From an uncultured Gammaproteobacteria bacterium (GTDB taxonomy: Bacteria > Patescibacteriota > Patescibacteriia > Magasanikbacterales > GWA2-37-8), in assembly GCA_964510885.1 (NCBI GenBank), contig CAZEDL010000001.1, positions 212,663 to 276,662 of the forward strand: a DNA stretch of 64,000 nucleotides, given 5' to 3'. How positions within the stretch are numbered: the stretch's first letter is position 1; each line of letters opens with the position of its first letter. Below the pieces are notes generated by a model. The model saw nothing but the letters and a program-made list of their open reading frames with translations, made no database searches and was not told the origin of the DNA. Shown here piece after piece: positions 6,521-48,950 of this stretch. The position numbers and the translations under genes are program-made.

Positions 6521-6571
6521 TTTGCAATAAAAAGAAGGGTAAGTTGAAAAAAGTAGCCTAATATAAAGCAA

Positions 6572-6600
6572 AAAACTACGGAGCGAACCGTAGTTTTTTT
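6572..6600 (+). terminator. Rho-independent terminator
   Basis: CTACGG-AGCGAA-CCGTAG hairpin followed by TTTTTTT. Confidence 0.6.
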
Positions 6601-6818
6601 ATATATATAAAGTAAAACTTACTTGACAATTCGAACAGAATGGGGTAGCGTAGGATGCTATTTCCGCGTTACTGCGGATATAGGACACGCTCTTTTTATT
6701 AGAATAGACTACTCGTCAGTTAGTTGCTTTGAATTAAGGAAATAAATTTTTGTTTGCTAACTTCAAAGCAATTACTAACCGCTTCTCCTGCCGGCAAGGC
6801 AGGGAAAGGAAACAACGA

Positions 6819-7580
6819 ATGATTGAAAAAGATAAAGAAGGTTCGGGAGGAGACATTGGCCCCATGACCACACTCCCCGCTGACACCCTCGTGGTGATTG
6901 AGGCAGAGCTCCCTCCGGACGTGCCTTATGTTCCGGCAGTGGTGTTGGATCCGAACACCCGCCGAAATGAGGCGGTGTACACACCAGAGCTCCTCCGGGC
7001 AGCTGGCCTGTCTGATCCACAGGCTCCACAGCTCCCCCTGCTGAGCGAGGCAGAAGACCATCCGAAGCAGCTACAGGACTATAACGTCGATGTGTCGGAC
7101 CTCTTGGCGGAAGCTGCGGCCGGGCCCCCTCCTCAACCTGGCCCTCCGCCGCTACAACTGCCCACGACTCCACCGGCGCCACAGCGGGCATTCCCGCGCT
7201 CGCGCCTCGGTAGCGTCATCTTGGCGCTCGGTGGCGCTGCTGGCATGGCGCTCATGCTCGCCAACTGGGCCTGGACGAGCCCACCAAAGCCCCGTAGCTC
7301 GACAGATTTCGGTCTGCCGGAGGCAGTGGTGCCTGCGCCCATACCCTCCCCCGACATTCCGCGGCAGTGCCAGCACCTTCCGGCTGCGGCGCGTGGGAAA
7401 CAGTGCCCCGCAGCGACCAGGGCCATTGAGGTCGAGGTACCGGAGCCCCAGAAAAAGCGGCCGAAAAAATCGCGTCGCAAAAGAGCTACACCGCCCACCT
7501 CTCCACCCTCTGTGCCACCACCCGCTGCGGTGGTAGCGCCGCCTGAGCCCGAGCAAGCGCCTCCTCCTCCGGCCGAGTAG
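6819..7580 (+). CDS. Hypothetical proline-rich, single-TM membrane-anchored protein encoded in a high-GC islet
   Basis: ATG 6819 with AGGGAAAGGA SD; PPPQPGPPP / TPPTSPPSVPPP low-complexity segments, central hydrophobic helix (LGSVILALGGAAGMALMLANWAW), basic KKRPKKSRRKR patch; local GC far above flanks. Confidence 0.45.
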   Translation: MIEKDKEGSGGDIGPMTTLPADTLVVIEAELPPDVPYVPAVVLDPNTRRNEAVYTPELLRAAGLSDPQAPQLPLLSEAEDHPKQLQDYNVDVSDLLAEAAAGPPPQPGPPPLQLPTTPPAPQRAFPRSRLGSVILALGGAAGMALMLANWAWTSPPKPRSSTDFGLPEAVVPAPIPSPDIPRQCQHLPAAARGKQCPAATRAIEVEVPEPQKKRPKKSRRKRATPPTSPPSVPPPAAVVAPPEPEQAPPPPAE

Positions 7581-7700
7581 TCACCCCCTGCCCCACCTCC
7601 CATCTGGGACGGCCAACTGGGGCAGGCGCATCGCCCTTCCCCTCCCTGTCATTTTATCTTCGATGAGCTGACAGGTAGAAGGGTGGCGCAATTATTTAAA

Positions 7701-7737
7701 AATATCCTCCTGATTAATCAGGAGGATATTTTTTTAT
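7701..7737. terminator. Strong bidirectional terminator
   Basis: Perfect hairpin ATATCCTCCTGATT-AATC-AGGAGGATAT + T-run. Confidence 0.65.
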
Positions 7738-8039
7738 TTCTTTTCGGACGTAGACAGTATGTTTTTTACCAGAGCAAAATTTTTCTGTTCAGGAGATAGC
7801 CCATATTTGTCTTCCAATTTAGAGGCCTCTTGCAACTGTTTTTTTTTTGGGACTGGCTCGCCTGAACGTAGCGTGGCATTAAAAATGAATAGATAGTCCT
7901 CGGCGTCGCGGCTTGACCAACCGAGTTTCTGTAAGGCTTCTATACGCCTAAGGTTGGCTTCAGCCTCGCTTACTTGGATATCAAACTGGATTTGGTGTGG
8001 AATAATAAATTCACCGGGTACAGGTTTTTTGAAAGGCAT
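7734..8039 (-). CDS. Hypothetical protein (101 aa)
   Basis: ORF with coding-like composition, 2 nt from upstream EEP gene. Confidence 0.4.
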   Translation of the reverse strand: MPFKKPVPGEFIIPHQIQFDIQVSEAEANLRRIEALQKLGWSSRDAEDYLFIFNATLRSGEPVPKKKQLQEASKLEDKYGLSPEQKNFALVKNILSTSEKK

Positions 8040-8041
8040 AG

Positions 8042-8842
8042 TTAATTAATAGTAAGAATAAGCGGCAAATGGTCAGAGATTGGCAAATCCGGAACGGTAA
8101 AATTTTTTACGGTCAGGCCCGGAGTAACAAAAGCATAATCGGCAAATTCTTGAAACCCATTCTCGCCGGCCGCATATTCTGGGTGGATCTGCTTAAGCAA
8201 GCTACCACGCGTCGTCTTGATAGCCCATTCTTTAACCAGGTTGCGGAAACCCGCTTTTTCAAAGGCAGTGACGCTGACAGTGTCGGGAAGTAGATTAAAA
8301 TCTCCCATGATAACTTTGTCTCCACTAAATTGCTCTGCTGTCCGGATAATTTTTTCTGACTGGGCTAACCGGTCGGGTGTATCTAGCTTTGAGAATGGAT
8401 AGGCGGTGCCGTGGACGCTAAAAACAGTTAGTGGCATCCCCTTCAATTCAGTTCTGACGTAAGCTGAGTTATGCGGCAAGGTAATAATATCATCAGCCAT
8501 ATAACTATTACGTTCGTGATAGATAAAGAAATTGCCACTGCCGTGAATGGGCCAGGTTTTTTTTACAAACAGCGCCACACCTTGCTCGATCGGAAGCGGC
8601 ACCATTGTCTCGACGTCAAAATTAGCTTGGGACGGAGCGAAAAAATGCTGGAAGCCTGGCAAAGCAGTGATTAGCTCTTCAAGCAAATTGGTGCGGGCGC
8701 CGTGACTTTCGCCAGCCGGGCCGGTGGTAGAGAGTATCTCTTGAAAACAAAAAATATCCGTGGTTGGGGCCTCGGATGTTATGAAGTCAAGCAGCGGTTC
8801 AAAAAAATGACCGGCGTATGTATTAAGCGAAATTATTTTCAT
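8042..8842 (-). CDS. Endonuclease/exonuclease/phosphatase (EEP) family protein
   Basis: 266 aa; EEP signatures (…MGDFNLLPD…, …SDHLPLIL…). Confidence 0.7.
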   Translation of the reverse strand: MKIISLNTYAGHFFEPLLDFITSEAPTTDIFCFQEILSTTGPAGESHGARTNLLEELITALPGFQHFFAPSQANFDVETMVPLPIEQGVALFVKKTWPIHGSGNFFIYHERNSYMADDIITLPHNSAYVRTELKGMPLTVFSVHGTAYPFSKLDTPDRLAQSEKIIRTAEQFSGDKVIMGDFNLLPDTVSVTAFEKAGFRNLVKEWAIKTTRGSLLKQIHPEYAAGENGFQEFADYAFVTPGLTVKNFTVPDLPISDHLPLILTIN

Positions 8843-9109
8843 AATAAAGCTTTCACTCTCCTAGCCCACGAGGGCCCAGGGCGGCCGTTTTATAGCCTAA
8901 CTTGTTCTGGGATAAGCCATAATATGAGGTCGTGCAGACCTCACCGCCTGATCAATCTATATTTTTTGCCTAGCAAGAAATTATCGTGCCGGAGATATGG
9001 AATTAGCTGCAAGGTTTTATTTAACCAAAATTATTCGCTTTGCAATATGTTAGAAAAAAGAATTTTATAATGATAACACATTTTATGAACTTTAAGCAAC
9101 TCTCGATGA

Positions 9110-10624
9110 TTGACTGACACGCAATTATCTGATATGATCAGCCACGTTTATAGCTCCACTCATATGGAACATGGCAATGTAATCATTCGGTTTGATACCG
9201 TGCAATTTGCCTACCAAGAAGGCAAGCAGATCCTTGAAGAGGCTAGTTTTTCGGTGCGTAAAAATGCCAAAGTGACCATCATGGGGCAAAACGGAGCGGG
9301 CAAAAGCACTATTTTTAAATTGATCCTCAATGAGCTTAGCCCGGACAGCGGCAGTGTTAGCATCGAGAACGGAGCCAAGATTGCCATTGCCACCCAGGTA
9401 ATGAAGCCGGAATTTTTTGACAAAACAGTGGCCGAATTTTTTGCCACCGCTTTTGAAGAAAAAACCTATGATCTGCCGAAACGAATTAAAGATGTGCTCG
9501 AAATTGTCCATTTGACCGCCCCGTTAGATAAATTGATCAAAGGTTTTTCGGGTGGCCAACAGGCCAGGCTGCTTTTGGCCTATGCCATTATTCAAGAACC
9601 GGATATTTTACTGCTTGATGAACCGACCAACAATCTTGATAGCCAAGGAATTGCGCATCTCACTGAATTTTTGATCAATTATCCCAAGACCTGCTTGGTC
9701 ATTTCGCATGATGCAAATTTTTTGAATGCCTTTACAGACGGCGTGTTATATCTCGATGTCTTCACCAAACAAGTGGAGCAGTATGTGGGCGACTATTACA
9801 ATGTGCTTGGTGAAATCGAAGCGCGGATTGAACGCGAACGCATGAAAAATGCCCAGCTGCGTAAAAGTATCCAAGATCGCAAGGATAAAATAAACTTTTT
9901 TGCCAATAAAGGGGGCAAGATGCGCAAACTGGCCAGCAAATTGCGTGACCAGGTGGAAGAAGCCGAGGATTCAATGGTAGATGAACGGCGCGAAGACAAA
10001 ACAATTAATGACTTTATGATTCCCGCCAGCACCGAACTGGTAGGGCCGGTGGTGGAAATTAGTTCGGTTGGGGTGATGATCGATCATGAGCCAGTACGAA
10101 AAACATTGCTGTCCCCCCTATCGCTTCGTAAAAAACAATGTTTGCTAATTGAAGGACCCAATGGCATTGGAAAGAGCACACTGCTTGCAGCGTTGGCTGC
10201 TGGCACCGAAAGCGGAGCTACGATTGCTAAGGATGTAAAAGTGGGATATTACCGACAAGATTTTTCAGGGCTAAATTTTGATCAAACCGCCTATGAAGCT
10301 TTGGCCGAAATGATGGTGGACCCCTGGAACCAAGAAATTTATGCTACGGCGTCGCAATTTTTATTAACCCCAGAAGTACTGCGTAATAAAGTAGGAGCTT
10401 TGTCGGAAGGTCAAAAAGGACTTTTGTGCTATGCCCGGTTTGTGTTACAAAAGCCGGGTTTACTGATTATGGATGAACCGACGAATCATATTAATTTTCG
10501 ACACCTCCCGGTGATTGCCAAAGCACTCGATGAATTTGAAGGGGCACTGATTCTGGTGAGTCATGCCTATGAATTTATTGGAGAAATAACGATTGATCAG
10601 CGCTTGGATCTGGTGAATATTTGA
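9110..10624 (+). CDS. ABC-F family ATPase (two tandem ABC domains, no TMD)
   Basis: Walker A GQNGAGKST and GPNGIGKST, signatures LSGGQQ / LSEGQK, Walker B LLLDEPTN / LIMDEPTN; start codon uncertain (TTG at 9110 or downstream ATG). Confidence 0.8.
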   Translation: MTDTQLSDMISHVYSSTHMEHGNVIIRFDTVQFAYQEGKQILEEASFSVRKNAKVTIMGQNGAGKSTIFKLILNELSPDSGSVSIENGAKIAIATQVMKPEFFDKTVAEFFATAFEEKTYDLPKRIKDVLEIVHLTAPLDKLIKGFSGGQQARLLLAYAIIQEPDILLLDEPTNNLDSQGIAHLTEFLINYPKTCLVISHDANFLNAFTDGVLYLDVFTKQVEQYVGDYYNVLGEIEARIERERMKNAQLRKSIQDRKDKINFFANKGGKMRKLASKLRDQVEEAEDSMVDERREDKTINDFMIPASTELVGPVVEISSVGVMIDHEPVRKTLLSPLSLRKKQCLLIEGPNGIGKSTLLAALAAGTESGATIAKDVKVGYYRQDFSGLNFDQTAYEALAEMMVDPWNQEIYATASQFLLTPEVLRNKVGALSEGQKGLLCYARFVLQKPGLLIMDEPTNHINFRHLPVIAKALDEFEGALILVSHAYEFIGEITIDQRLDLVNI

Positions 10625-10746
10625 CTTTTTTTTAAGAATATCTTAGAGTCCGAATCAGAGCATTTTGTTGGCCAAAATTGCGTAATAAGGCGTATGTATG
10701 GCCAATTTATCACCGGACTGCTTGTTGCGGTCCAAGGAGCTTGCAC

Positions 10747-10914
10747 ATGAAAATTTTGCGAATTGCGACTCTTTTTATCGGGTTTGCCTGCTTAGGGTGG
10801 GGGTACCCCGGACAGTGCGAAAACGACACCAACTGCCCCACGGGGCAGGTGTGTGGGAAGGAAAAAAGGTGCGTTCCAGCGCCAAAGCCAATCCCCAGGC
10901 CACCCACCAAGTAA
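10747..10914 (+). CDS. Small secreted cysteine-rich peptide (56 aa precursor; C-X5-C-X5-C-X5-C + Pro-rich tail)
   Basis: AAGGAG SD 8 nt before ATG 10747; Sec-type signal MKILRIATLFIGFACLGWG; four Cys at regular spacing; strong terminator follows. Confidence 0.5.
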   Translation: MKILRIATLFIGFACLGWGYPGQCENDTNCPTGQVCGKEKRCVPAPKPIPRPPTK

Positions 10915-10936
10915 GACCCCAGTAAGGTAGCCTGAA

Positions 10937-10975
10937 GCCGCCGGTTTCCTCTAACCGGCGGCTCTTTCTTTTTTA
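10937..10975 (+). terminator. Rho-independent terminator
   Basis: AGCCGCCGGTT…AACCGGCGGCT hairpin + TTTCTTTTTT. Confidence 0.65.
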
Positions 10976-11062
10976 AAGCATATTTAACCAGCCATTCCTT
11001 GACAATCGCTGGTTTTTTTGTTATATTTTAGCATTAATTTTGATTCCTTAACCAAGGATTTT

Positions 11063-32828: not shown

Positions 32829-33431
32829 ATGACAACTATTGAACAAGTTATCGACTCAATCAGATCCGGACAGATGGTGATCGTAACTGATGCGACTGAT
32901 CGAGAGAATGAAGGCGATCTAATCATGGCAGCGGAGCGAGTTAGCCCGGAAAAAATTAACTTTATGAGTCGAGAAGGGCGTGGGTTAATATGCCTTGCCA
33001 TTACTCCAGAGCGGGCGGGTGCCCTTGACCTGCCACCCATGGTGAGTGACAACACATCACTGCACCACACTAATTTTACGGTGTCGATTGATAGCCGCGA
33101 CGGAATTACCACCGGCATTGGGGCGGCCGAGCGGGCTAAAACTATTGTGGATGTGTTAAAAGATGACGCGCAGCCAGAAGATTTTTGCCGGCCTGGGCAT
33201 GTGTTTCCGATAATCGCTCACCCGGGCGGAATACTCGCTAGGCCCGGCCACACGGAGGCAGCTGTAACACTGGCGCAATTAGCTGGACTAAAACCAGCTG
33301 GGGTTATTTGCGAAATTTTAGATGCGGCTGGCAATTCATGTCGTGGAGATGATTTGACTAGGTTTGCCAAGCGACATGATTTGTTAGTTATTAGCATTGC
33401 AGAACTTATCGAGTATCTAAAGACTAAATAA
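32829..33431 (+). CDS. ribB: 3,4-dihydroxy-2-butanone-4-phosphate synthase
   Basis: 200 aa; RibB motifs (…DRENEGDL…, …HTEAAVTLA…). Confidence 0.85.
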   Translation: MTTIEQVIDSIRSGQMVIVTDATDRENEGDLIMAAERVSPEKINFMSREGRGLICLAITPERAGALDLPPMVSDNTSLHHTNFTVSIDSRDGITTGIGAAERAKTIVDVLKDDAQPEDFCRPGHVFPIIAHPGGILARPGHTEAAVTLAQLAGLKPAGVICEILDAAGNSCRGDDLTRFAKRHDLLVISIAELIEYLKTK

Positions 33432-33476
33432 GTATTAAAAAACGAACCGGTTGGCTCGTTTTTTACTTTAGATAAA

Positions 33477-33944
33477 TTATTTTTCTAAGCGGAAGTAACC
33501 GATGGTAAAGGGCAAGCCAGGAATCACGCGGTAGTGGATCTTGCCGAGATATTTTCCCGGAGACACTTCAACAATTTCATCAAGGATTGGCTTAATCCAG
33601 AATTGGTTGCCTGGCAATCGATAATCGATTTTAAAGGTTTGGATGCCGGCATCCCGGAACCCAGGGCCACTATAGGTGAAGAACGGATACTTGTTAATGG
33701 CTTCGGTGCCGACTGAGAAGCGGTTGTCACCCGTATTATCAGAGGGACGGAAGGTTTTGCCGAGCCAGTTGGCACGATAGAAGGTGGTGGATCCACGATA
33801 AAATCCTTCTGGGGGCGAACTCGGGAGCGTGCCCTTTAAAAATTCGGCTTGCTCGGGAGTATTTTTGCTTCTGATTGTTAAATACGACAGCACGATGACC
33901 AAAATTACTATGGCTGCCAAAATAAATTGAAGAAGTATTTTCAT
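33477..33944 (-). CDS. Hypothetical N-terminally anchored exported protein
   Basis: 155 aa, N-terminal TM/signal anchor. Confidence 0.4.
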   Translation of the reverse strand: MKILLQFILAAIVILVIVLSYLTIRSKNTPEQAEFLKGTLPSSPPEGFYRGSTTFYRANWLGKTFRPSDNTGDNRFSVGTEAINKYPFFTYSGPGFRDAGIQTFKIDYRLPGNQFWIKPILDEIVEVSPGKYLGKIHYRVIPGLPFTIGYFRLEK

Positions 33945-34017
33945 ACAATATTTAAATTGTTTGCATATATTACCATATAAATCTTAATATTGGTAGCGAT
34001 TTTAAAAAATAAAAAAA

Positions 34018-34350
34018 TCAAACGCTTTTTTTCTTACGTGGTTTCGGCGGTTTAAGATCCGCTGCGCAGGCTGCACATAAAGCATCAAAGCTTTCACCGT
34101 TTTCCAAAAATTCTGTACTCATAATATAAGCCGGTTTGGCACCCGGGTATGGCAAACCCGTCTTGTGCTTCGCACCAAGTATGCCAGTAGTCTGCGGCGT
34201 AATTTTAACAAACACCTGATTATCGCAGATCAAAGCTACGACTTTATTATTATAGTACAGTGCATATTCACCAAACATCGCTCGGATGCGGGCCACATGG
34301 CCATTAACTTGATCGAGCACGAATTCGGCAAAATCGCGGGTGGTGGCCAT
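34018..34350 (-). CDS. TfoX N-terminal domain protein
   Basis: RAMFGEYALYYNNKVVALICDNQVFVK matches TfoX_N core. Confidence 0.5.
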   Translation of the reverse strand: MATTRDFAEFVLDQVNGHVARIRAMFGEYALYYNNKVVALICDNQVFVKITPQTTGILGAKHKTGLPYPGAKPAYIMSTEFLENGESFDALCAACAADLKPPKPRKKKSV

Positions 34351-34406
34351 AGTTATAGTGATTTCAAAAATTATATACTACGACTGACATACCAGAATAA
34401 ATGCTG

Positions 34407-34865
34407 CTATTTTTTGCTCGAAACCGTTTGATCGATATGACCCACCTTCTTAGCGATCGCATGCACATCGGTGTGAATTTCCTCTAGCGCTTCGCTTTCC
34501 GAAACAATTTCGGCCTCGGTTTTTTCTACTAATTTTTTCTGTCCACGCAAACCAGAAATAATAATTTCATTACCAATAAAATTAGAAACAAATAAACCCG
34601 TAGACAGGGTAATTATAGTGCCGATAAGTAACGATACCGGCCCATCCCACCACGGAAAAACGGCTTGACCAAGAGCAGTCGGAGCGAAAAAACATTCCAT
34701 GATCAGATCTACGGTATTCCAAGCACCGCGCCAAAAAACCACTACCCCAAACCCGCCAATAAACGCATATACGATCGGCCGACGGCTGCACCAGCCACGA
34801 ACTTTATCTTCAAATTTATCACCCCAACGGTATATTTTTTTGAACATATTCGGTTGATTTATCAA
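34407..34865 (-). CDS. Hypothetical membrane protein
   Basis: 152 aa, 2-3 TM. Confidence 0.4.
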   Translation of the reverse strand: MINQPNMFKKIYRWGDKFEDKVRGWCSRRPIVYAFIGGFGVVVFWRGAWNTVDLIMECFFAPTALGQAVFPWWDGPVSLLIGTIITLSTGLFVSNFIGNEIIISGLRGQKKLVEKTEAEIVSESEALEEIHTDVHAIAKKVGHIDQTVSSKK

Positions 34866-35167
34866 ACTAGGATACAGAACTTATTTACTTACTATTTTTC
34901 GCATTTTATATTTAATGACCCCGTATACGCAGGAAGATTATACTAATCATTATAAAGATGCAACACAGACATTTATTAAGCGATAGGCTGAATACGTAGA
35001 GGGTATAGAATTATTTTTTGAATTAATCTGACAGCTGGTTTAATGATGTGCAGATAAACAATTAAGAAACTGTACTTTTCATGAATGAACTGAGATAAAT
35101 GTATCTTTTTTGATCTAATTTTTTGAAGTAAAAACTAAGACACCGGCATTAAAGCTGCTGTCTTAAA

Positions 35168-35184
35168 TGTAGCCCGTACGGGAA
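35168..35184. repeat. Partial (17-bp) third copy of the tRNA-Glu att core
   Basis: TGTAGCCCGTACGGGAA identical to first 17 nt of the 24-bp repeat; diverges after. Confidence 0.55.
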
Positions 35185-35342
35185 ATCTTGTGCGTCGTCG
35201 CTACGCTCCTCCTACACAAAAACCTTCGGGTTTTCGTGGGCTTTCCTCCCCAGGTAAAAAACTCCATTTCTTACCATCTTGCGTGCGATTCAGTGGATCA
35301 AAAAACAAATAAAATACTCCCTTATTAAGGGAGTATTTTATT

Positions 35343-35366
35343 TGTAGCCCGTACGGGAATCGCACC
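35343..35366. repeat. Left att direct repeat (24 bp) of integrative element
   Basis: TGTAGCCCGTACGGGAATCGCACC identical to 42063-42086. Confidence 0.7.
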
Positions 35367-35568
35367 AACTCAAGCAAATTCTGAATTTTCCTACGGTTGA
35401 GCAATTATACGCTGACGTTAGCTAAAAGTCTAATTCTCATTCGTTCTCAAGTATCCGCATCCGTACTCCCCTTTCATCACTTTTTGGCCACAGGGTGGAC
35501 ACAAACTTTTAAGATGTTCAACGGCAACACAGAGAAAGTGATATTGCGGGGAAACCCGTATAGAAAAT

Positions 35569-36228
35569 TTATGGTAGAGGAAGGTTCTTGTCCTTCTTTC
35601 CAAAAAGGACGTAAATAAAGGCTTTATAGTAAAAAAGTAAGCCTCCGGCCACTAATCCTACCCAAGTTAAAACAGAAAATAAAATTGTTTGTATATAAAA
35701 AATGTAATTTCTCTGATACTTAACTATGTCTTGATATTCACAATTATTTCGATCATCTTTATTGATAAGACAAACCAAACTTTTCTCCTTGATTGTATTG
35801 ATAACATAAGTTTTCAAAAACTCCCTTTCTTTTCCTTGGTTATCATAATAATTAGGAATAATTACAGGCAACACCGAATCAAGAGAACTCAAAATATCTT
35901 TATTGCAATAACTATCTTTAGAAAGACTATACTCCGAAAGCCACTTATAATTATTTGCTGGTTTATCAAGGCATCCTAGCTCACCTTTTGTAGCCAAAAA
36001 ATCAGGCAATACATTGGTGGAGCTATCTACACTCTTGGTATATTCATTAAGATTTGAAATAATCTTAGTATTTGAAGGTTTTAATTGTAATAAGAAATAG
36101 TACGAAATCGGTATTAGAACTATTAGTAAGGAAATAATAAGAAAGAAAACCACCTTAAATAGCCTGTGCCACCATTTAGAATTTAAGTTTAAGTCTGGGC
36201 GAAAAAAATTATTATATCTTTGCTTCAT
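35569..36228 (-). CDS. Hypothetical membrane protein (island cargo)
   Basis: 219 aa, TM near N-term and C-term. Confidence 0.4.
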   Translation of the reverse strand: MKQRYNNFFRPDLNLNSKWWHRLFKVVFFLIISLLIVLIPISYYFLLQLKPSNTKIISNLNEYTKSVDSSTNVLPDFLATKGELGCLDKPANNYKWLSEYSLSKDSYCNKDILSSLDSVLPVIIPNYYDNQGKEREFLKTYVINTIKEKSLVCLINKDDRNNCEYQDIVKYQRNYIFYIQTILFSVLTWVGLVAGGLLFYYKAFIYVLFGKKDKNLPLP

Positions 36229-36305
36229 AATATTAAAAAAATTAACGCCTCACCTTTTCACTTTCGTAAACTTGCTTAAAATATTTCCTAGTTTTCATGT
36301 TATTT

Positions 36306-36665
36306 TTATCTAAATTTTTCTACCTCATTATCATAATCCGACCTTGTATCAACCGCTTTTATTTCTTTTCCTTCTAAAATGTCCTTCAGTACAAAGGATG
36401 TATAGACTTTTTCCTTGCCATTAAAATCGGCATGTGTGACTCTGGCTAAACCTTCTAAACACGTATCCAGCTTTGTGCTGTAAAAAATTTCCAACAGAGA
36501 AAGGTTGTTATAGGGAGAATTTTCAGTGTTATACTTTTCGATATTTTGTTTTTCAGTAGAAATATAGTTTGAACATTCAAGTTTTTTCTGAAAACTAATA
36601 TCATTTTTTGCACAACCCGCACCTATCATTAGAAAAATGATCAAGAAAAAACCTATTTTTCTCAT
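36306..36665 (-). CDS. Hypothetical lipoprotein (island cargo)
   Basis: Signal peptide + lipobox IGAGC. Confidence 0.45.
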   Translation of the reverse strand: MRKIGFFLIIFLMIGAGCAKNDISFQKKLECSNYISTEKQNIEKYNTENSPYNNLSLLEIFYSTKLDTCLEGLARVTHADFNGKEKVYTSFVLKDILEGKEIKAVDTRSDYDNEVEKFR

Positions 36666-36679
36666 AAATTATTGTTAAT

Positions 36680-37288
36680 TTATCTAAAAGTACTAGTAAC
36701 GGTACTTGAACTACTCAGACCCGTGTCTGTATTAAGCACACTAGTAACAGGGGCTATTTTTTTAGAAGTCGGATGTAGAAAACTTAAAAGGCTTCCCCAA
36801 TTAAACACCACCGCAATAACCAGAACAGCAAGAAGAGTGAAAAAACCTACTATAAAAAAGCTGTTAATTTTTTTTGTAATGGCAGAAAAGGCAATTTTTG
36901 TTGTTGGTAATTGTGCTTTATAAAAAGCATACACTAAGACTAAAAATCCTAAGTAGCCTAAATATCTTTTTAAACTAGACATTTGTCCAAATGCGCTGAT
37001 AATAATATAACCAACCAAACTAACAAGCATTGTTGTAAAAGGAAGTTTTTCTTCAAGATGGGCTAATAAACTAGGGACGTATTGGATACCATAATTGTCA
37101 CCGCCACCCAGCCCTTTCCTACTAGTCCAGTCATCTGACGAAGTACCCCCACCGCTCTTAGTGCCACCCTCTTGATTAACTGAATTAGGTTGCCCAAAAC
37201 TACTGATATCCTCAAAATTATCAGTATCTATAGAAACTCCGGTTGGTTTTTCGTTCGTATTCCTAGAATCAACCGCTCCGTTATTCAT
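36680..37288 (-). CDS. Hypothetical membrane protein with Gly/Ser-rich N-terminal region (island cargo)
   Basis: 202 aa; GGTKSGGGTSSDD low-complexity then 3-4 TM. Confidence 0.4.
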   Translation of the reverse strand: MNNGAVDSRNTNEKPTGVSIDTDNFEDISSFGQPNSVNQEGGTKSGGGTSSDDWTSRKGLGGGDNYGIQYVPSLLAHLEEKLPFTTMLVSLVGYIIISAFGQMSSLKRYLGYLGFLVLVYAFYKAQLPTTKIAFSAITKKINSFFIVGFFTLLAVLVIAVVFNWGSLLSFLHPTSKKIAPVTSVLNTDTGLSSSSTVTSTFR

Positions 37289-38003
37289 AGAAATATGTCA
37301 AAAAACCATTGTGTATTTCTTCGATTGCATTCACATTTGATTTACACAGGTTTAGTAATTGATCCGGATCCAAGACCATCTCTTTATTTTGATAGAAATC
37401 AATGCTACAAAAAGTGCCACAGTCACGCTTGAAATTTTCCGGATAAATCTTTTTATTTTCAAAAAACCGAGTAAAAGCCTCTTCTGCAGAAACAGGGCCG
37501 GTTTGAAAATTATACTTACCTTCAGATCGTTCGCAATCATTAAAGGTATAACCAAAATCTAATATTTTTGAATTAGTATAAGTTTCAAATGAGGCATAAT
37601 TTTTAAACATTTTTTCTTTATACCTTGTTTTTATATTCTCAAGGTTATCTGCGCTTCTATAGTTCAAAACCAAGGACTTTGTGCCGACCCGTATTAAAGA
37701 CTTGATGGGGTATTTATCAAATTTTCTTAAAATTCTAAATAAATCATCAATTTTATTACGAAACTCGCCAAAATCAGGAGAAGCTTCAATTTGAAGACCA
37801 AAATTTTCTAAACTAAAAAAAAGAAACTCTGAAAAATCTTCAGTAGCAACATCCACTCGATCGTTTGCCATTCTTATTTTTGTAAACTCTGAATTTCTAG
37901 ATATTAAATACTCCGCCATCTCGCCTTTAAAATCTATGAAAGAAAATTTTCTATTCTTTAATCGAATTTCTAGAAGATGCCTAATTATTTTTGTATCCGA
38001 CAT
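37281..38003 (-). CDS. Hypothetical protein (island cargo)
   Basis: 240 aa soluble, no recognised motif. Confidence 0.4.
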   Translation of the reverse strand: MSDTKIIRHLLEIRLKNRKFSFIDFKGEMAEYLISRNSEFTKIRMANDRVDVATEDFSEFLFFSLENFGLQIEASPDFGEFRNKIDDLFRILRKFDKYPIKSLIRVGTKSLVLNYRSADNLENIKTRYKEKMFKNYASFETYTNSKILDFGYTFNDCERSEGKYNFQTGPVSAEEAFTRFFENKKIYPENFKRDCGTFCSIDFYQNKEMVLDPDQLLNLCKSNVNAIEEIHNGFLTYFYE

Positions 38004-38129
38004 AATAGTAAATTCTATTTTAGAATAGAAATTAAAGCCTTGAATTTTAGAAATTTAAAATTTGTGTATAGGCTAATTTTGCTATACTATAGCAGAAAAT
38101 CAATATTTTACAAGCAAAATCCTCCCACT

Positions 38130-39242
38130 ATGCCCTCCCCTAACCCTCAAGTCGTCACCGCCATAGATACAGGTAAAATGTTAGAAAGACTACATTCTTC
38201 AACACAGACAACCGAGCAGAATTTTCTTCCTACGTTATTTGACTATCTAGAGTATATAGTTAAGAATCCAAAAACTAAGGCTCTGCTTCAGGAATTAGAA
38301 AAATCCCGAACAGATGCCTATAGCAGCTACTTTGAGCTTAAATCGAAGTCAAAAAAAGAACTTGAGAAATCAAAAAAAATACTCTTAGGAGCAGTCGCTA
38401 AAAATAAAATACAGAATCCTCAGCTAAAAGAGCGTACTGAAAACTGGAAACGTTATGAAAAAGGTGAAATAAGTAGCAACGCACTTTATGAGCACCGATT
38501 AGAAAGCTTTCTAATCGATATCTTCGATATTCTTTTTAAAGAGGGGTGCGGATCACTAATTGAGCCTTTATTTCCCAAAAATAACTATGGAAATTTGATT
38601 TTTTCTCCCTCTTTAGCCTTGTTTAAGAGAGAAAGTGAAAGGATAGACGAATTAAGAGATATTGAAATGTGGCATTGTTGGTATTCATTAAAATTTGTAC
38701 CCGAAATATCTAAACAAACTTTTGGCGATATAATGCACTCTCAAGGCCATTTAACTCACGAAGAGATCGGCTATTATTTTGACGCCTTACGTTTTAGGCA
38801 AGAGGGGCGAAAAGAAAAATCCAAGGATTATGAAGAGGATTTGCCAAAATATAAGGGCTATTTGAATCGACTGCACAACTATCTTGTTCAAAGATTGGAC
38901 GAAAGTAAAACCATTCCACTAGAGCAACCAATGACCCACAAGCTCAACTTTTTTCCAGCAGACGGAACAGCTCAATACAGAGGATCCAGCTATATATTCG
39001 CCTCAGGAACCAAAGGGCATGAATTATTAAACTTCTTATTTAACTCAAAAAATACCCCTTTAGAATTGCGCTACTTTCAAGAGCGATGTAACGAGAAAAT
39101 CAGGATCGGAAGGAATAAATTTAAAACAGACAAAGATATTTTAGACACGGTTAACCATATTAAAAAAAGACTGAAAGTGAATAAGAGTGAATACTTTCCT
39201 ATTTTTAAAACCGAAAAATGCTTTATTTGGGAGGAAAAATAG
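38130..39242 (+). CDS. Hypothetical protein (island cargo)
   Basis: start set at ATG 38130 (track ORF starts earlier and overlaps the divergent gene); terminator at 39300-39328. Confidence 0.4.
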   Translation: MPSPNPQVVTAIDTGKMLERLHSSTQTTEQNFLPTLFDYLEYIVKNPKTKALLQELEKSRTDAYSSYFELKSKSKKELEKSKKILLGAVAKNKIQNPQLKERTENWKRYEKGEISSNALYEHRLESFLIDIFDILFKEGCGSLIEPLFPKNNYGNLIFSPSLALFKRESERIDELRDIEMWHCWYSLKFVPEISKQTFGDIMHSQGHLTHEEIGYYFDALRFRQEGRKEKSKDYEEDLPKYKGYLNRLHNYLVQRLDESKTIPLEQPMTHKLNFFPADGTAQYRGSSYIFASGTKGHELLNFLFNSKNTPLELRYFQERCNEKIRIGRNKFKTDKDILDTVNHIKKRLKVNKSEYFPIFKTEKCFIWEEK

Positions 39243-39375
39243 CATTCACTCGGTTCACTTCATTCATCCACATAGAGAAGCAAAGAAAAACCCCATAGAA
39301 TCGTAGTATCAGACACTACGATTTTTTATTTAATACTTGGTTGCAAATCGCTGTTTTTCTTATCTGGCTTTTCCT

Positions 39376-39429
39376 GGGAGGGTTAGGCCGGAAGGTAAGC
39401 AGCGACTTGTTACCAATAACCCTCCCATG
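39376..39429 (+). promoter_or_regulatory. RBS-sequestering hairpin (GGGAGGGTTA…TAACCCTCCC) directly before start codon
   Basis: Perfect 10-bp inverted repeat, 31-nt spacer, 3' arm ends at ATG 39427. Confidence 0.45.
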
Positions 39430-40695
39430 GATACCGTCCGTCTAAAATTTAGCCATTACCTACCCAAAACTTCCTTTTTTAAGGATAAAGTTTTAAGTAA
39501 GGTTTTAGCCTTAGAATCAGGCGCAGGTAAGCGTTATATCTTCACCAACAACGAATGGCGTAAGCAGCGCCAAGCGCAAGGTTTGTATACTCCTAAATAC
39601 TGGATTGAGGAGGATGTTGTAATACCCTCAAATACTTTCTTCTATATCGAGTGCTCTCTGCCCAAGCTGCACTGGGGACAAAATATAACCGAACCAACAG
39701 ATACCGATTTAGAGCCTATAGTCGCCTCTCTAAGAGCTTTTTTGAGAGAAATTGAGGTATATGTCAGTACGGGTCAAATCCTCAACGCTACCCCTACTCT
39801 TGTAGCAGTAGGAAAGAATATTGATCTCACCCGTTTCTGCTCCGTCGACTTAACTCTAAAAGCACTTAGCCCTTTTGACTTCAAGCCAAAAACTAAGCAT
39901 CGGTTTATTGATTTTTTGGATTGTGAGCATGGGGGCAGGCAGATAATTTTTTCCAAAAAAGAAGAAACGCTTAAGCTCTACAACAAACTATCTGAAGTAG
40001 CCAATAATGCTATTACCGATAAAGAAAAAGCTGTAAGGCAGGCCGTTGAGAAGCAGCGTTACCGCTCAGAAGCTATCTATGTCAACGAAATGCTTAGAAC
40101 AGAGCTAACACTTAAAACAAGACGAAAGATAGAGAATAGATTTAAAAAGTACCTGCCTACTGGCCAAGAGGTGAATTTTCAAAATCTCTTCAAAAAATCA
40201 ATTTGGGATAAATTGCTAGCCGAAGAAATAGCGACCGTATATATGCACCCACTACGGCATTTTGTTTTTCTAGCACAAGAAAATAAGCCAATTATTGAGG
40301 CTTTCTTGGACAAAAACCACAAGCATATCGAGACGAAAGATACGGTAATGGGAATTATTGGCTCTTTACAGGAATATGGCCTAGCTCAAACCCGCCAGAG
40401 ATACTTGGCAAAATACGACAGCAGACAGACTTGGTACAACTATCTAAAACGGTTTAAAAAAATTGATGAAGCATACGATTTTAGTTCGCTGGCTAACTCT
40501 GATAATTACAAAATTTACTGCCATATTCTTGGACAATTTGGCTTAGATACTGCCGCCCAAGCTAGTTTTGATTTCGATACATTGTCTAAAAAACTAGACA
40601 GCGAGCAGTGTAATACTAATTGTGATAAACTAACAGCGACCAAGGCGGCTAGTCCGTCTTCTGTGTTGCTCTCTGACAATTTATATGGATGCTGA
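39427..40695 (+). CDS. Hypothetical protein; possible rolling-circle replication initiator (weak Rep_trans-like N-terminus)
   Basis: N-terminal DTVRLKFS resembles iDwLrfTf start of replication-initiation-factor family; otherwise unassigned. Confidence 0.3.
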   Translation: MDTVRLKFSHYLPKTSFFKDKVLSKVLALESGAGKRYIFTNNEWRKQRQAQGLYTPKYWIEEDVVIPSNTFFYIECSLPKLHWGQNITEPTDTDLEPIVASLRAFLREIEVYVSTGQILNATPTLVAVGKNIDLTRFCSVDLTLKALSPFDFKPKTKHRFIDFLDCEHGGRQIIFSKKEETLKLYNKLSEVANNAITDKEKAVRQAVEKQRYRSEAIYVNEMLRTELTLKTRRKIENRFKKYLPTGQEVNFQNLFKKSIWDKLLAEEIATVYMHPLRHFVFLAQENKPIIEAFLDKNHKHIETKDTVMGIIGSLQEYGLAQTRQRYLAKYDSRQTWYNYLKRFKKIDEAYDFSSLANSDNYKIYCHILGQFGLDTAAQASFDFDTLSKKLDSEQCNTNCDKLTATKAASPSSVLLSDNLYGC

Positions 40696-40921
40696 TTGTA
40701 CCCCACAATCCAAGCTCCGCTTTCTAACACCGCCAGAGGTGGCTGCTTTTCTGTGTATTTCCAAAGCCACTGTCTACCGCTTTATTGAGAAGCGAACCCT
40801 CCCCTTCTACAAAATCGGCGGATCAATCCGGTTTAAAGAAAGCGACGTTTTGGACTATATCGAACAGTGTCGGGTACAAACAGCTACAGAACTATATGAG
40901 CACACTAAAACGAGGAAATAA
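40685..40921 (+). CDS. Excisionase/AlpA-like helix-turn-helix DNA-binding protein
   Basis: LTPPEVAAFLCISKATVYRFIEKRTLPFYKIGGSIRF HTH_17 pattern; overlaps int start. Confidence 0.6.
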   Translation: MDADCTPQSKLRFLTPPEVAAFLCISKATVYRFIEKRTLPFYKIGGSIRFKESDVLDYIEQCRVQTATELYEHTKTRK

Positions 40922-42026
40922 CTGGTATATCGATTTCTGGTTTGACCGTATCCGATACCGTAAGCGTAGCCCTGACAATAGCAAAGCAGGGGCAGAGGCT
41001 TACGAAGTACTGCTACGCCAGAAACTAGCTCACGGAGAGCCGATTATAGAGGTTAAAGAGGTTGCTAAAAACATCCCCACCTTTGCAATCTTCTCTCAAG
41101 AGTGGCTAGCGTCGTACGTTCAGAACAATAATAAGTATTCCGAAGCTGAAAATAAACGCTCCGCCCTGAACTATAACCTTATCCCCTTTTTCGGGAAACT
41201 TCCTTTAGATCAGATTGCTACCCGTAACGTAGAGGAATACAAAGCTGCCAAGATTAAGGCTGGACTAAAAAACAAGAGCATCAACAATCATTTGTCTTGC
41301 CTCAGAAAATGCCTGACTACAGCTCAAGAATGGGAAATGCTCGAACATGTGCCAAAGATAAAGCTACTTAAAGTACCACCGCCAGAAACTAAATTCCTAA
41401 ACCAAGCAGAATGCGAACGGTTGCTCAAAGTGGCCACAAACAACTGGTACGACATGATTTTTACCGTCATGCGTACCGGCATGCGATTTGGCGAACTTGT
41501 TGCCCTGAAATGGTCGGATATAGACTTCAACGGAAGAATTATTACCATCCAACGAAGTATAGCCCGTGGAAAAATGGGCAGCACCAAAAGCAACAAAATC
41601 AGAAAAATCCCACTGGCTAGCGACCTATCAAGTCTGCTAGATAGAAAAAGAAGGAACGGAGTATTCGTTTTTGCGGATGGACAAGGGAATCTTCCTAAGC
41701 AGGACTTCTGTCGCAGCCACTTACTACGCCTAGCAGAAAAGGCCGATGTTGAACTTATTGGGTGGCACACTTTACGCCATACCTTCGCCTCGCATCTAGC
41801 TAATAACGGGGTAGCTGTTCATGTCATCCAGCAACTACTTGGACACTCCGACATTAAGACCACGATGCGCTACTCGCATATCGCTCCTACGACGCTGGTG
41901 AACGCAATTAGCGTACTTGAAAACAGCTCTCCACTGTTTTGGACACAGGATGGACACAAGCAAGAAAATTCTGAAATCGGACAGCTCTTCAAAACTTTTT
42001 CTTCGACTCGTATTTTCGCTCAATAA
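40896..42026 (+). CDS. Tyrosine-type site-specific integrase
   Basis: N-terminal arm-binding-like WYIDFWFDRIRYRKRS; C-terminal catalytic R…HTLRHTFAS…H…RY (LGHSDIKTTMRYSHI). Confidence 0.85.
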   Translation: MSTLKRGNNWYIDFWFDRIRYRKRSPDNSKAGAEAYEVLLRQKLAHGEPIIEVKEVAKNIPTFAIFSQEWLASYVQNNNKYSEAENKRSALNYNLIPFFGKLPLDQIATRNVEEYKAAKIKAGLKNKSINNHLSCLRKCLTTAQEWEMLEHVPKIKLLKVPPPETKFLNQAECERLLKVATNNWYDMIFTVMRTGMRFGELVALKWSDIDFNGRIITIQRSIARGKMGSTKSNKIRKIPLASDLSSLLDRKRRNGVFVFADGQGNLPKQDFCRSHLLRLAEKADVELIGWHTLRHTFASHLANNGVAVHVIQQLLGHSDIKTTMRYSHIAPTTLVNAISVLENSSPLFWTQDGHKQENSEIGQLFKTFSSTRIFAQ

Positions 42027-42030
42027 CGCA

Positions 42031-42055
42031 AAAAACAGAGTTGTCTCTGTTTTTA
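42031..42055 (+). terminator. Terminator after integrase
   Basis: ACAGAG-TTGT-CTCTGT hairpin + TTTT. Confidence 0.5.
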
Positions 42056-42062
42056 AATCGCG

Positions 42063-42086
42063 TGTAGCCCGTACGGGAATCGCACC
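42063..42086. repeat. Right att direct repeat (24 bp) overlapping 3' end of tRNA-Glu
   Basis: Identical to 35343-35366. Confidence 0.7.
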
Positions 42087-42136
42087 CGTCTTTGAGCCGT
42101 GAGAGGGCCCTGTCCTAACTGATAGACGAACGGGCC
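42065..42136 (-). tRNA. tRNA-Glu (anticodon CTC)
   Basis: Hand-folded: acceptor GGCCCGT/ACGGGCT (one G-U), U8, D-arm TTCGTCTA… like bacterial tRNA-Glu, anticodon loop CTCTCAC, 4-nt variable loop, T-arm ACGGG-TGCGATT-CCCGT (unusual G at position 55), discriminator A. Confidence 0.65.
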
Positions 42137-47376: not shown

Positions 47377-47853
47377 CTAGCGCTCTACAAGCGGTGGAGT
47401 GAATATAAACGAAAAGAACATCCCGGGGACACTTGCCCTCCCCACTACATCACCGCCGAAGCTAGCAATAAGGGCCGGACACAGCCACGATTGACTACAG
47501 GTAGCCACTTCTAGCCCGGCGGCCACCACCACGCTGTCGTTTGGCGTGCCGTCATATGGCGTGCTGGCAGAGAGATAGGGCCCGATTAGCAGCGGGCCGA
47601 CCGGAAATAGCCAGTCGACTGACAGACTAAGGCTACTACTGACCGGGCACACCTCGAATGTGATCGAGGCGTACTGCCTTTTTTTAAGGCCTTTCTGCAA
47701 AGCTAGGCCAAGGCACGGCTCGATAGTGACCGCAGGATTTGGTTCTAGCGGCACGGTCATCGAGAGATCGGCGACGAAGAGGAGTGACTCTTCGGCAGCG
47801 GCTGTGAGCGTACTTGCCAATAAACAAAAAATGACGAGGGTCGTTCTCATCGT
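47377..47853 (-). CDS. Hypothetical secreted protein (high-GC islet)
   Basis: Signal peptide MTMRTTLVIFCLLASTLTAAAEE; no recognised domain. Confidence 0.4.
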   Translation of the reverse strand, partial: TMRTTLVIFCLLASTLTAAAEESLLFVADLSMTVPLEPNPAVTIEPCLGLALQKGLKKRQYASITFEVCPVSSSLSLSVDWLFPVGPLLIGPYLSASTPYDGTPNDSVVVAAGLEVATCSQSWLCPALIASFGGDVVGRASVPGMFFSFIFTPPLVER

Positions 47854-48015
47854 CATGTCACGGACCTCCAAACGATTGGTTAGACGTTTGAGGTGATACT
47901 AGCAAGTTTCTATGGATTCGTATACAGAGGCCGCTGTGCAGCCGCTTTGTACGAACTGCCAGGCCAGCCCGCGCGAATCGGAGACTCGCGGGGCGGCCTG
48001 GCTGGTTCTAGTGGT

Positions 48016-48582
48016 TCAATGGGTGGGATCCGGGATCGGCGCGCTGAGTAGCATGCCGATCCCGTGGCCAGGGTGGCCGTGGTGATCGGGGTGGAGCAGG
48101 TGCCCCACGATTACGGACACGCTGGTCCGTTTCGTGGGCTTCACCCGCAGGGTTGGGCCCGCCACATTCCCGCCAAAGCCGGGCTTTTCGCCGCTGAGCG
48201 CGACGATTAAGCCATCTCCGAGCCCGAGCGCCCAGCTGGGGCTGAGGGCGCGCAAACCGGCGATGGTCAGGATGAGCTGGAACTGCGGCTGGGTGTTCAT
48301 ACCCAGCTCGATCTCCCAGAGGAGCATCCACGCTCCCTGGCCACACTTGCCACCGATCCCGACGCCGCCGTCCCCAATGTACTCGGGCCGCAGCCTTGGC
48401 TCACCAAGGTGCAGCTCCTTTTCAAAAGGAGCAGCGAAGGACAGGCTCAATACCGGGTGCGGTCGCCCGCACCGGAAGCCTGCCGGCTGGTGGGGGCCGG
48501 CTTCATCGTCAGCACGAACCTCGCTCCCCACCAGGAGCAAGGCAATTACAAGTAGGGCGAAAATGCCCTTGTGACCCCTCAT
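48016..48582 (-). CDS. Hypothetical secreted protein with His-rich C-terminus (high-GC islet)
   Basis: Signal peptide MRGHKGIFALLVIALLLVGSEVRA; C-term HLLHPDHHGHPGHG. Confidence 0.4.
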   Translation of the reverse strand: MRGHKGIFALLVIALLLVGSEVRADDEAGPHQPAGFRCGRPHPVLSLSFAAPFEKELHLGEPRLRPEYIGDGGVGIGGKCGQGAWMLLWEIELGMNTQPQFQLILTIAGLRALSPSWALGLGDGLIVALSGEKPGFGGNVAGPTLRVKPTKRTSVSVIVGHLLHPDHHGHPGHGIGMLLSAPIPDPTH

Positions 48583-48633
48583 CTAGATACCTCCGAAAGA
48601 AGATGGTGCCACTTCGAACAGAATTGTTCGCAG

Positions 48634-48680
48634 TTGGCATTTAGAAAATTCACATTTTGTATGCGCTTTCTAAATGCCAA
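48634..48680. promoter_or_regulatory. 14-bp perfect inverted repeat TTGGCATTTAGAAA-N19-TTTCTAAATGCCAA
   Basis: Located ~50 bp upstream (minus strand) of secreted-protein gene start. Confidence 0.4.
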
Positions 48681-48950
48681 TTAATTACGAACTCTGTTTT
48701 TAAACCACTAGAATAGTGAGAAGACTAAGAGAACAGAGAATCCCATTTGGTGGGATTAGCCGCGACAAGCAAGCTCCCTTACACAGAAAAAAGCCGAACA
48801 TTTCGATATTTTTCTCTGTAAAAGTCGCTCACTAGGCGGGGACTCTGTACCATCTTACTTCTCGTTGTAAAGAACGATTTCTTAAATTCTGTAAAAAATT
48901 TAAGAAATCACTATAGCATAAAAATAGGAATTTGTCAATGTATTTTTTCT

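Follow-up and report, generated by a model that had tools for sequence, protein, structure and literature searches.

A small integrative element with a predicted rolling-circle replication module at the tRNA-Glu(CUC) gene of a patescibacterial genome

The 64,000-nt stretch of contig CAZEDL010000001.1 (assembly GCA_964510885.1) analyzed in this work, hereafter called the window, carries at positions 35343–42086 an integrated element of 6,744 bp, for which a circular form of 6,720 bp is predicted. With good confidence, it can be regarded as a small integrative rolling-circle-replicating element that resides in tRNA-Glu(CUC) and belongs to an undescribed family of Patescibacteria. The kind of the element is classical; new are the family, the replication module, the host phylum and two associated features, i.e., a structured leader in front of the replication initiator gene (rep) and a two-gene cargo core designated c240 + c202.

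The element is bounded by an exact 24-bp direct repeat, TGTAGCCCGTACGGGAATCGCACC, present in exactly two copies in the window, at 35343–35366 (the attL core) and 42063–42086 (the attR core). Permitting up to three mismatches revealed no extra copies in the window, the number expected from 100 shuffles being zero, so the repeat on which the initial annotation relied stands. The right copy forms the 3' end of an intact minus-strand tRNA-Glu(CUC) gene, the integration target, which was recognized by ARAGORN as tRNA-Glu(ctc) at 42064–42136 and reached 47.1 bits with the Rfam family RF00005 (gathering threshold 29) at 42065–42136 in a regional scan with permissive filters; the fold proposed initially by hand is thereby confirmed. 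The whole-window Rfam scan at the gathering threshold did not report tRNA-Glu at 42064–42136, which we attribute to its speed filters. Since a tRNA scoring 47 bits with permissive filters was missed there, a negative result of that scan is unreliable for this window. Of the repeat, 22 nt are the final part of tRNA-Glu, beginning midway in the T-stem and ending with the discriminator, and 2 nt lie past the tRNA; the gene was left intact (regenerated) by the insertion. The left copy is a displaced tRNA 3' end, and both copies have their counterparts in a related element at locus L002 described below. Directly outside attL, on the minus strand (35305–35345), a perfect stem of 19–20 bp followed by a T-run looks like the original tRNA-Glu terminator, presumably cut off from its tRNA by the insertion. 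The AT-rich character noticed previously was also borne out, as the GC content is 37.3% in the element vs. 45.3% and 47.0% in the flanks; inside the element it amounts to 32.8% in the cargo part (35569–39242) and 42.8% in the part from rep to the integrase gene.

The recombination module is located next to attR. The tyrosine integrase gene (40896–42026, plus strand) ends 36 nt before the attR repeat and encodes 376 aa from the likely ATG at 40896, the longest open reading frame (ORF) opening with a TTG at 40785 (40785–42026). The protein matched PF00589 (4e-31), PF14659 (N-terminal SAM-like domain) and phrog_1 (2e-68), and in the alignment to solved integrases (PDB 5c6k) the R, HxLRH, LGH and Y positions were conserved. 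Its start is overlapped by the gene (40685–40921, plus strand) of a 78-aa helix-turn-helix (HTH) protein, Xis, a candidate excisionase, or recombination directionality factor, with matches to PF12728 (HTH_17, 9e-17), TIGR01764 ‘excise’ (2e-14) and the excisionase family phrog_66. Thus, the integrase and the overlapping excisionase-like gene were assigned correctly from the beginning. The only PADLOC match in the element, that of Xis to mad1, reflects the shared HTH. The 23-nt motif TTTTGG(A/C)CACAGG(A/G)TGGACACAA is present on both arms of the element in direct orientation, as TTTTGGCCACAGGGTGGACACAA at 35482–35504 (plus strand, 116–138 nt inside attL) and as TTTTGGACACAGGATGGACACAA at 41937–41959 (plus strand, 104–126 nt before attR, inside the integrase 3' coding region). 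It is nearly unchanged on both arms of the L002 element (the left copy differs in 1 of 23 nt), though the two elements are 71–78% identical overall. We infer that these repeats are candidate arm-type integrase sites.

The protein described in the initial annotation as faintly replication-initiator-like was found to be a much firmer case. Rep (P0001) is encoded on the plus strand at 39427–40695, its true start at 39427 giving 422 aa, while the longest ORF would give 452 aa. It matched PF05144 (Phage_CRI, gene II protein N-terminal domain) with 22.8 bits at the Pfam cutoff of 21.7, as did 18 of its 28 homologues. Proteins of the Rep_trans/Phage_CRI superfamily are characterized by motifs I (RxD), II (T/SxY/ExG), III (YxKxxE, with the catalytic Tyr) and IV ((W/L)xRxE) (PMC5714925). 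Motif III of Rep reads Y185NKLSE and motif IV reads M222LRTE, their Y, K, E, R and E being invariant in 28 of 28 sequences; hence Tyr185 is the predicted catalytic residue. The structural model of Rep contains the crescent-shaped TBP-like catalytic fold and matches Rep_trans structures, the C-terminal half of the protein being long and helical. The above-threshold PF05144 match together with the invariant motifs III and IV argues for a true initiator of rolling-circle replication that belongs to the Phage_CRI/Rep_trans superfamily, with nicking activity predicted.

Rep homologues numbered 34 in 5.8 billion proteins and were encoded at 40 other loci in total, in both cases belonging to Patescibacteria where named. 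No relatives of Rep were found in the phage or plasmid collections, in two scans of viral contigs (IMG/VR), or, by sequence, in the PDB; exact-protein look-ups with MurF and Rep of the window gave no match. The family census covers the window and 37 other Rep-bearing loci, three more (L094–L096) having been fetched later. The recurring core has the order c3 – rep – ORF of ~50 aa – recombinase gene, sometimes with a 60-aa HTH_17 protein encoded before the recombinase, and the c3 slot is filled either by a c3 protein of 370–540 aa or by an alternative protein plus DUF5659. A large serine recombinase is encoded at no fewer than 24 loci, a tyrosine integrase only at three, namely the window, L002 and L079; the window integrase is 64% identical to that of L079. 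In the window, the c3 position directly upstream of rep is occupied by c370 (38130–39242, plus strand), a 370-aa soluble protein assigned by its homologues and synteny. Only two homologues of it were detected in 5.8 billion proteins, both upstream of a Rep, and the c3 blastp cluster comprises 11 loci, every one upstream of Rep. The 3' part of the c370 gene and the following intergenic region, where a terminator-like hairpin with a T-run (39297–39325, plus strand) is conserved in sequence across family members, display conservation at the DNA level even with members possessing a serine recombinase. No match of c370 in Pfam, NCBIfam or PADLOC was obtained at E ≤ 0.1 except NF045932 (18 bits, cutoff 70); a single PHROG match was sub-threshold (E 0.036).

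The closest backbone was encountered at locus L002 (MurF 76% identical), where the same PBP–MurF–tRNA-Glu region holds an element of ~9.9 kb with a 23-nt version of the repeat at its ends. The two elements share ~180 bp of the attL-proximal arm, and their Rep, Xis and integrase proteins are 67%, 78% and 73% identical, respectively. The cargo of L002 comprises a 790-aa methyltransferase/restriction endonuclease fusion, a specificity (S) subunit, a DUF5655 protein and a 273-aa protein; in the relatives generally, the genes upstream of the c3–rep pair are often restriction-modification (R-M)-like. The block between attL and the c3–rep module looks like a cargo slot. The element belongs to a previously undescribed family of small integrative rolling-circle elements of Patescibacteria. 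In the Komeilibacteria-type loci L003–L012, rep is preceded by a DUF5659 gene instead of the long leader, and the serine recombinase gene overlaps the ychF start; therefore, the family targets protein genes as well as tRNAs. Several contigs, among them those of L013, L014 and L016, have Patescibacteria-like gene content and synteny and are deposited as ‘uncultured Gammaproteobacteria bacterium’, which is probably a labelling artefact of the assemblies.

As PF05144 is named after the gene II of filamentous phages, the element could also be taken for an integrated filamentous phage (inovirus), or for a satellite like RS1 of CTXphi. The gpII-like Rep would then replicate the genome, morphogenesis proteins, its own or those of a helper, would package it, and the small membrane proteins would be coat or assembly components. 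We consider such a nature of the element very unlikely. It would agree with the length of 6.7 kb, typical of inoviruses, with three of the four minus-strand cargo proteins being membrane or lipoproteins, and with the record of inoviruses that use serine or tyrosine recombinases in the candidate phyla radiation (CPR) (Roux et al., 2019, PMC6813254). However, inoviruses are defined by the pI morphogenesis ATPase, their sole universal marker, and by short coat proteins with a single transmembrane domain (TMD) (Roux et al., 2019, PMC6813254). The element lacks a pI/Zot FtsK-HerA ATPase, as no Walker-A motif was found in its six frames and no Zot or ATPase match in Pfam, PHROGs or NCBIfam; likewise, there is no free-standing single-TMD ORF of 30–90 aa, each such ORF being 84–100% inside a larger one. 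Because both the Walker-A ATPase and the coat-like ORFs are missing, the element is most probably not an inovirus, though it may live as a satellite. Moreover, the Rep family has no relative in the IMG/VR viral contigs or the phage collection, the relatives possess R-M genes where the structural module would sit, and the membrane proteins of the window cargo are not conserved across the family. Inoviruses of the phiRSM type target the 3' end of a tRNA gene. Integrative inoviruses, both those of the phiRSM type and the cryptic ones described by Roux et al. (2019, PMC6813254), are similar to the element in having a gpII-family Rep, a genome of 6–8 kb and integration by a tyrosine or serine recombinase, and dissimilar in the pI ATPase and short single-TMD coat proteins, which the element lacks, as well as in the absence of its family from viral collections.

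The region immediately upstream of rep (39337–39426, plus strand) is a structured leader or origin-like element, for which no Rfam match was obtained. Its hairpin S1 (39337–39416) exposes in the loop GGAGGGTT (39377–39384), complementary to AACCCTCC (39418–39425) just 5' of the Rep ATG (pairing S2). The minimum free energy of the window leader is -43.5 kcal/mol (z = -4.7), and among 22 distinct sequences of the family, 20 have a long hairpin of the S1 type directly before the Rep ATG. In the alignment of 20 loci used for the covariation analysis, 91.8% of the S1 cells were paired, as compared to 78% in shuffles and 37–53% with the partners slid; 11 of 13 pairs displayed changes on both sides (compensatory), and the observed covariation score was reached by none of 500 shuffles. 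For S2, the mean duplex energy was -16.9 kcal/mol with cognate segments, -13.6 with non-cognate and -7.1 with shuffled ones, the cognate mean being reached in 0 of 10,000 permutations. Family-wide, the partner of the S1 loop is situated 1–5 nt before the Rep ATG, and both segments vary jointly, e.g., GGGAGAATTTT/AAAATTCTCC in L085. The topology of S1 plus S2 is that of a predicted pseudoknot. The structure was assigned to the Rep-sense strand because the U·G and G·T pairs fit that strand, which could be the mRNA, or else the displaced DNA strand if the latter is of mRNA sense. In Ff phages, the displaced DNA strand has mRNA sense. The region could be an RNA leader that controls translation, a cluster of operators for a protein, or a single-strand origin; probably, it gates Rep expression by means of the covarying hairpin/pseudoknot.

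The pre-ATG segment is not confined to rep. The box (A)ACCCTCC occurs family-wide 2–5 nt before the start codons of both c3 and rep (38118–38125 and 39418–39425 in the window, and likewise in L001, L002, L069, L074, L076, L080, L082, L084 and L094). In 10 of 10 loci, the 8-mer or its one-mismatch variant, AATCCTCC in the window, precedes the c3 ATG, usually without a complementary partner. This observation favors another view of the sequence before Rep, namely that GGAGGGTT and AACCCTCC are DNA operators or iterons for Rep or the c3 protein rather than paired RNA; the sites would precede both the c3 and rep starts, once in inverted orientation, and the apparent covariation would come from co-evolution of a single recognition sequence. 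It is also favored by the location of all three exact 8-mer copies of the 64-kb window inside the element, one of them falling in the Xis codons for R-T-L-P, residues common to L002, where its occurrence may be coincidental. Furthermore, pairing of the Shine-Dalgarno (SD)/anti-SD kind is not a compelling alternative, because the host rarely uses SD sequences: an SD-like core was seen upstream of the start codon in 4 of 36 long host ORFs of the window (a rough count, with the starts taken from the longest ORFs), so that the host seems to rely mostly on SD-independent initiation. The reading of GGAGGG as an SD mimic, considered at one stage, is weakened for the same reason and by the same pre-ATG box at c3 having no partner. 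Against operators alone, the two segments mismatch at four positions, each of them a G·T that is wobble-compatible on the Rep-sense strand, the pairing often runs past the 8-mer with element-specific flanks, and in the surrounding S1 compensatory change is strong and U·G pairs on that strand are numerous. We therefore give the operator interpretation a lesser, though appreciable, likelihood, and the two readings of the leader, as operators and as paired RNA, are not mutually exclusive.

The history of the tRNA-Glu site was followed in relatives by a genome scan with MurF. No clean empty site was detected in the two closest ones, L002 and L014, because both are occupied. In L014 (MurF 74% identical), a large serine recombinase reads into the tRNA-Glu 3' end, which encodes its C-terminus; the recombinase is followed by a 933-aa FtsK/HerA/TraG-like ATPase (5081–11014 of that locus), and the element may be conjugative and a potential helper. 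In L002, a large serine recombinase ORF (28–1905) reads through the left att copy of the sister element, where the contig ends, which suggests that elements of two types are arranged in tandem at this tRNA. In L015 (MurF 64%), tRNA-Glu is unoccupied and followed directly by housekeeping genes, and the PLD protein is 51% identical over its full length to the product of the PLD gene left of the island in the window. The occupied L002 and L014 and the unoccupied L015 point to tRNA-Glu as a hotspot for at least two element types that is unoccupied in a more distant relative. Hence, the initial proposal of a tRNA-targeting integrative element is supported by L002, where this tRNA houses a common backbone with conserved arms but other cargo, and by L015. 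As for the search for an empty site in relatives, it yielded the unoccupied tRNA of L015 in the MurF and PLD synteny but no exact empty site.

A number of observations weigh against the proposed nature of the element. Rep motifs I (RxD) and II (T/SxY/ExG) were not recognized by a simple pattern search, the conserved positions R159 and E75-x-S77 being candidates for them but off the published patterns; no nick site or replication origin was identified in the element, and no transfer function is encoded in it. L015 is a relative with MurF of only 64% identity, and between tRNA and PLD it has other genes than the window. The circular attP junction and the repaired attB, proposed for checking in the initial annotation, were not found: metagenome and viral collections contained no exact attB or attP, and a junction pattern degenerate only in the flanks, meant to capture attL, attR, attB and attP of close strains as well, had no match in them. 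Terminal overlap was observed in no Rep-bearing contig, and for this reason the 5–6.7-kb Rep-bearing contigs were dropped as candidates for free circles. A 1,922-bp contig from the run SRR16481187 was 100% identical to 36520–38441 of the window. Because no exact empty site or circular junction was found, excision, replication and present-day mobility of the element are inferred.

These negative results could mean that the element is a fixed remnant, which integrated in the past, lost excision and replication, and was kept since its cargo is useful or neutral. Decay of elements at this site is indicated by the 175-bp stretch adjoining attL on the left (35168–35342). It opens with a third, partial copy of the repeat (35168–35191, the first 17 nt identical), revealed by a gapless repeat search, and may be a scar left when another element integrated into this tRNA earlier; neither this stretch nor the left flank had similarity to any fetched locus. 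In addition, the GC content of the rep–integrase half (42.8%), close to the host value, is compatible with long residence. Nevertheless, the two 24-bp repeats have not diverged, none of the eight ORFs is disrupted and the catalytic residues are conserved, the arm sites and the Rep leader are preserved, and closely related backbones differ in their cargo and in their integrases, implying that the family was active recently. We thus regard a fixed remnant as unlikely.

The cargo slot of the window comprises four co-oriented minus-strand genes (35569–38003), and the ORF inventory described initially was reproduced; it comprises proteins of 219 aa with transmembrane segments, 119 aa with a signal peptide and lipobox, 202 aa with transmembrane segments, 240 and 370 aa, both soluble, and the 422-aa Rep. 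The impression that the cargo lacks recognizable domains was also correct, since Pfam, NCBIfam, PHROG and PADLOC gave no assignment for the cargo proteins. The first gene of the operon encodes c240 (37281–38003, minus strand), a soluble 240-aa protein of an unannotated family. It has eight homologues, the family extends to 283 cluster representatives at E ≤ 1e-3, and no Pfam or NCBIfam match was found even with the distant members included; the c240 model (predicted local distance difference test score, pLDDT, 74) weakly matches TBP-like alpha+beta folds. The gene of c202 (36680–37288, minus strand), a 202-aa membrane protein with two hydrophobic segments in a Kyte-Doolittle scan, overlaps c240 by 8 nt, and the partner proteins elsewhere possess two to three such segments. 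A c202-like partner adjoins the c240 homologue in three other contexts, represented by L098 (6e-20), L102 (7e-16) and L107 (1e-24). In L098–L101, the pair lies between an N6_N4 methyltransferase and a ResIII/restriction endonuclease gene, embedded in an R-M-like operon with overlapping stop and start codons (4058–10164 of L098, likewise in L099–L101); there, the c240-like protein and its membrane partner may serve as accessories to R-M of a Type III-like kind. In L102–L105, the pair is on a serine-recombinase island, and in L107 it is next to a P-type ATPase. Judging by these occurrences, c240 and c202 form a conserved soluble-plus-membrane two-gene module found in four contexts including the window. 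From the genomic context, our best guess is that the cargo, with c240 + c202 as its core, has a defence or exclusion role. A 309-aa protein of L098, taken by eye for SIR2-like, was dropped as unsupported by Pfam. The two remaining cargo genes encode c119 (36306–36665, minus strand), a putative 119-aa lipoprotein with an N-terminal signal sequence and a lipobox-like GAGC, assigned with the aid of a hydrophobicity scan, and c219 (35569–36228, minus strand), a 219-aa membrane protein with an N-terminal transmembrane segment and C-terminal hydrophobic segments; among the fetched loci, neither a homologue of c119 nor a counterpart of c219 was found.

Two further observations concern the surroundings of the element. 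The genes left of attL (33400–35300 of the window) have a GC content of 38–42% and no counterpart in relatives; they encode a 155-aa protein, in which a hydrophobic segment at the N-terminus is visible by eye, a TfoX_N-domain protein (34018–34350) and a 152-aa apparently membrane-associated protein, and may be older DNA accreted at the same hotspot. At 47500–48700, a sharp GC peak of 58–62% stands out from the 45–50% background, with no Rfam family reported at the gathering threshold.

Taken together, the data allow the following mechanism to be proposed. The integrase would bind the core and the TGGACACA-type sites on both arms and, together with Xis, would recombine attL with attR within the T-loop-to-acceptor segment. 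A circular double-stranded form would be freed with the predicted attP junction ...TTTTTAAATCGCG + TGTAGCCCGTACGGGAATCGCACC + AACTCAAGCAAATTC..., and tRNA-Glu would be restored with its own terminator at the predicted attB junction ...GGGAGTATTTTATT + TGTAGCCCGTACGGGAATCGCACC + CGTCTTTGAGCCG.... Rep, its expression probably being gated by the leader, would nick an origin, the probable place of which is the structured, conserved stretch that immediately precedes rep, and the resulting rolling-circle replication would maintain the element after excision. In Tn916 and ICEBs1, proteins of the Rep_trans type also act as MobT relaxases (PMC5704250); for this reason, Rep may in addition permit mobilization of the element by a helper, a candidate being the element with a serine recombinase and an FtsK/TraG-like ATPase at the same tRNA in L014; alternatively, the spread could proceed via natural transformation. 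The cargo slot holds R-M genes in relatives and the four-gene operon with the c240 + c202 core in the window. On a more ambitious and quite tentative view, which we put forward as a possibility, such elements are Patescibacteria-wide integrative rolling-circle replicons whose c3–leader–Rep module swaps tyrosine and large serine integrases and serves as a vehicle for defence cassettes, the leader and the AACCCTCC box before c3 and rep constituting a new copy-number or translation control, and c240 + c202 a new two-gene membrane-acting defence or exclusion system.

Little is known about the mobile elements of Patescibacteria, and studies of plasmids in this group are rare (PMC12023590). The locus described here provides a reference point for a family that can be recognized and searched for by its core (c3, leader, Rep, recombinase), and the members of which target different chromosomal sites and carry R-M genes along with unannotated cargo; owing to this, the family could be used to map gene flow and defence in the largely uncultivated Patescibacteria. 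It also illustrates how, in nature, a single replication backbone can exchange a tyrosine integrase for a large serine one or vice versa. To our knowledge, genetic tools for Patescibacteria are few, and the integrase/att pairs together with the compact replicon are candidates for such tools. The Rep leader and the c240 + c202 pair, in turn, offer well-defined questions that can be tested.

Among the systems known from other bacteria, the leader has its nearest parallel in IncI-alpha/IncB plasmids, where a leader pseudoknot controls rep. In both cases a hairpin precedes rep, and its loop can pair with the nucleotides directly before the rep start codon; unlike in those plasmids, no antisense RNA or leader peptide was identified here, the same 8-mer also precedes a second gene (c3), the control function is predicted from sequence, and the replicon type and host are unrelated. 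As a whole, the element most resembles integrative mobilizable elements (IMEs), or actinomycete integrative and conjugative elements (AICEs) deprived of transfer genes. AICEs of the pSAM2 type have the genes rep, xis and int beside a tRNA att site, exist in tyrosine and serine recombinase versions, and need rolling-circle replication of the excised form for transfer (PMC3218068). The window element shares with them the gene order rep–xis–int (39427–42026) followed by attR at the tRNA, as well as the existence of both recombinase versions. In contrast to pSAM2, it has no FtsK/SpoIIIE-type Tra protein and no Walker-A motif, its Rep is not a RepSA (HUH) protein, and no regulators of the Pra/KorSA type were identified. 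It is also about half the size of pSAM2 (~11 kb). Streptococcal IMEs encode a tyrosine or serine integrase and a Rep_trans/MobT-type protein, often having nothing else for transfer (PMC5704250), and the window element likewise combines an integrase and a Rep_trans-superfamily protein with no mating-pair genes. Further likenesses to the Firmicutes IMEs with MobT/Rep_trans proteins, e.g., IME_Sag2603_tRNAlys, are the small size, the tyrosine or serine integrase beside the att site, integration at the 3' end of a tRNA or another conserved gene, the Rep_trans-superfamily protein as the sole DNA-processing enzyme, variable passengers and the frequent absence of a coupling protein (PMC5704250). The differences from these IMEs are the patescibacterial host, the affiliation of Rep with PF05144 rather than PF02486, the length and helical nature of its C-terminal half, the presence in the window family of a conserved partner gene (c3) and a structured Rep leader, and the lack of a known helper conjugative system or origin of transfer (oriT) for the window element. 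With these distinctions, the streptococcal IMEs appear to be its best functional analogue.

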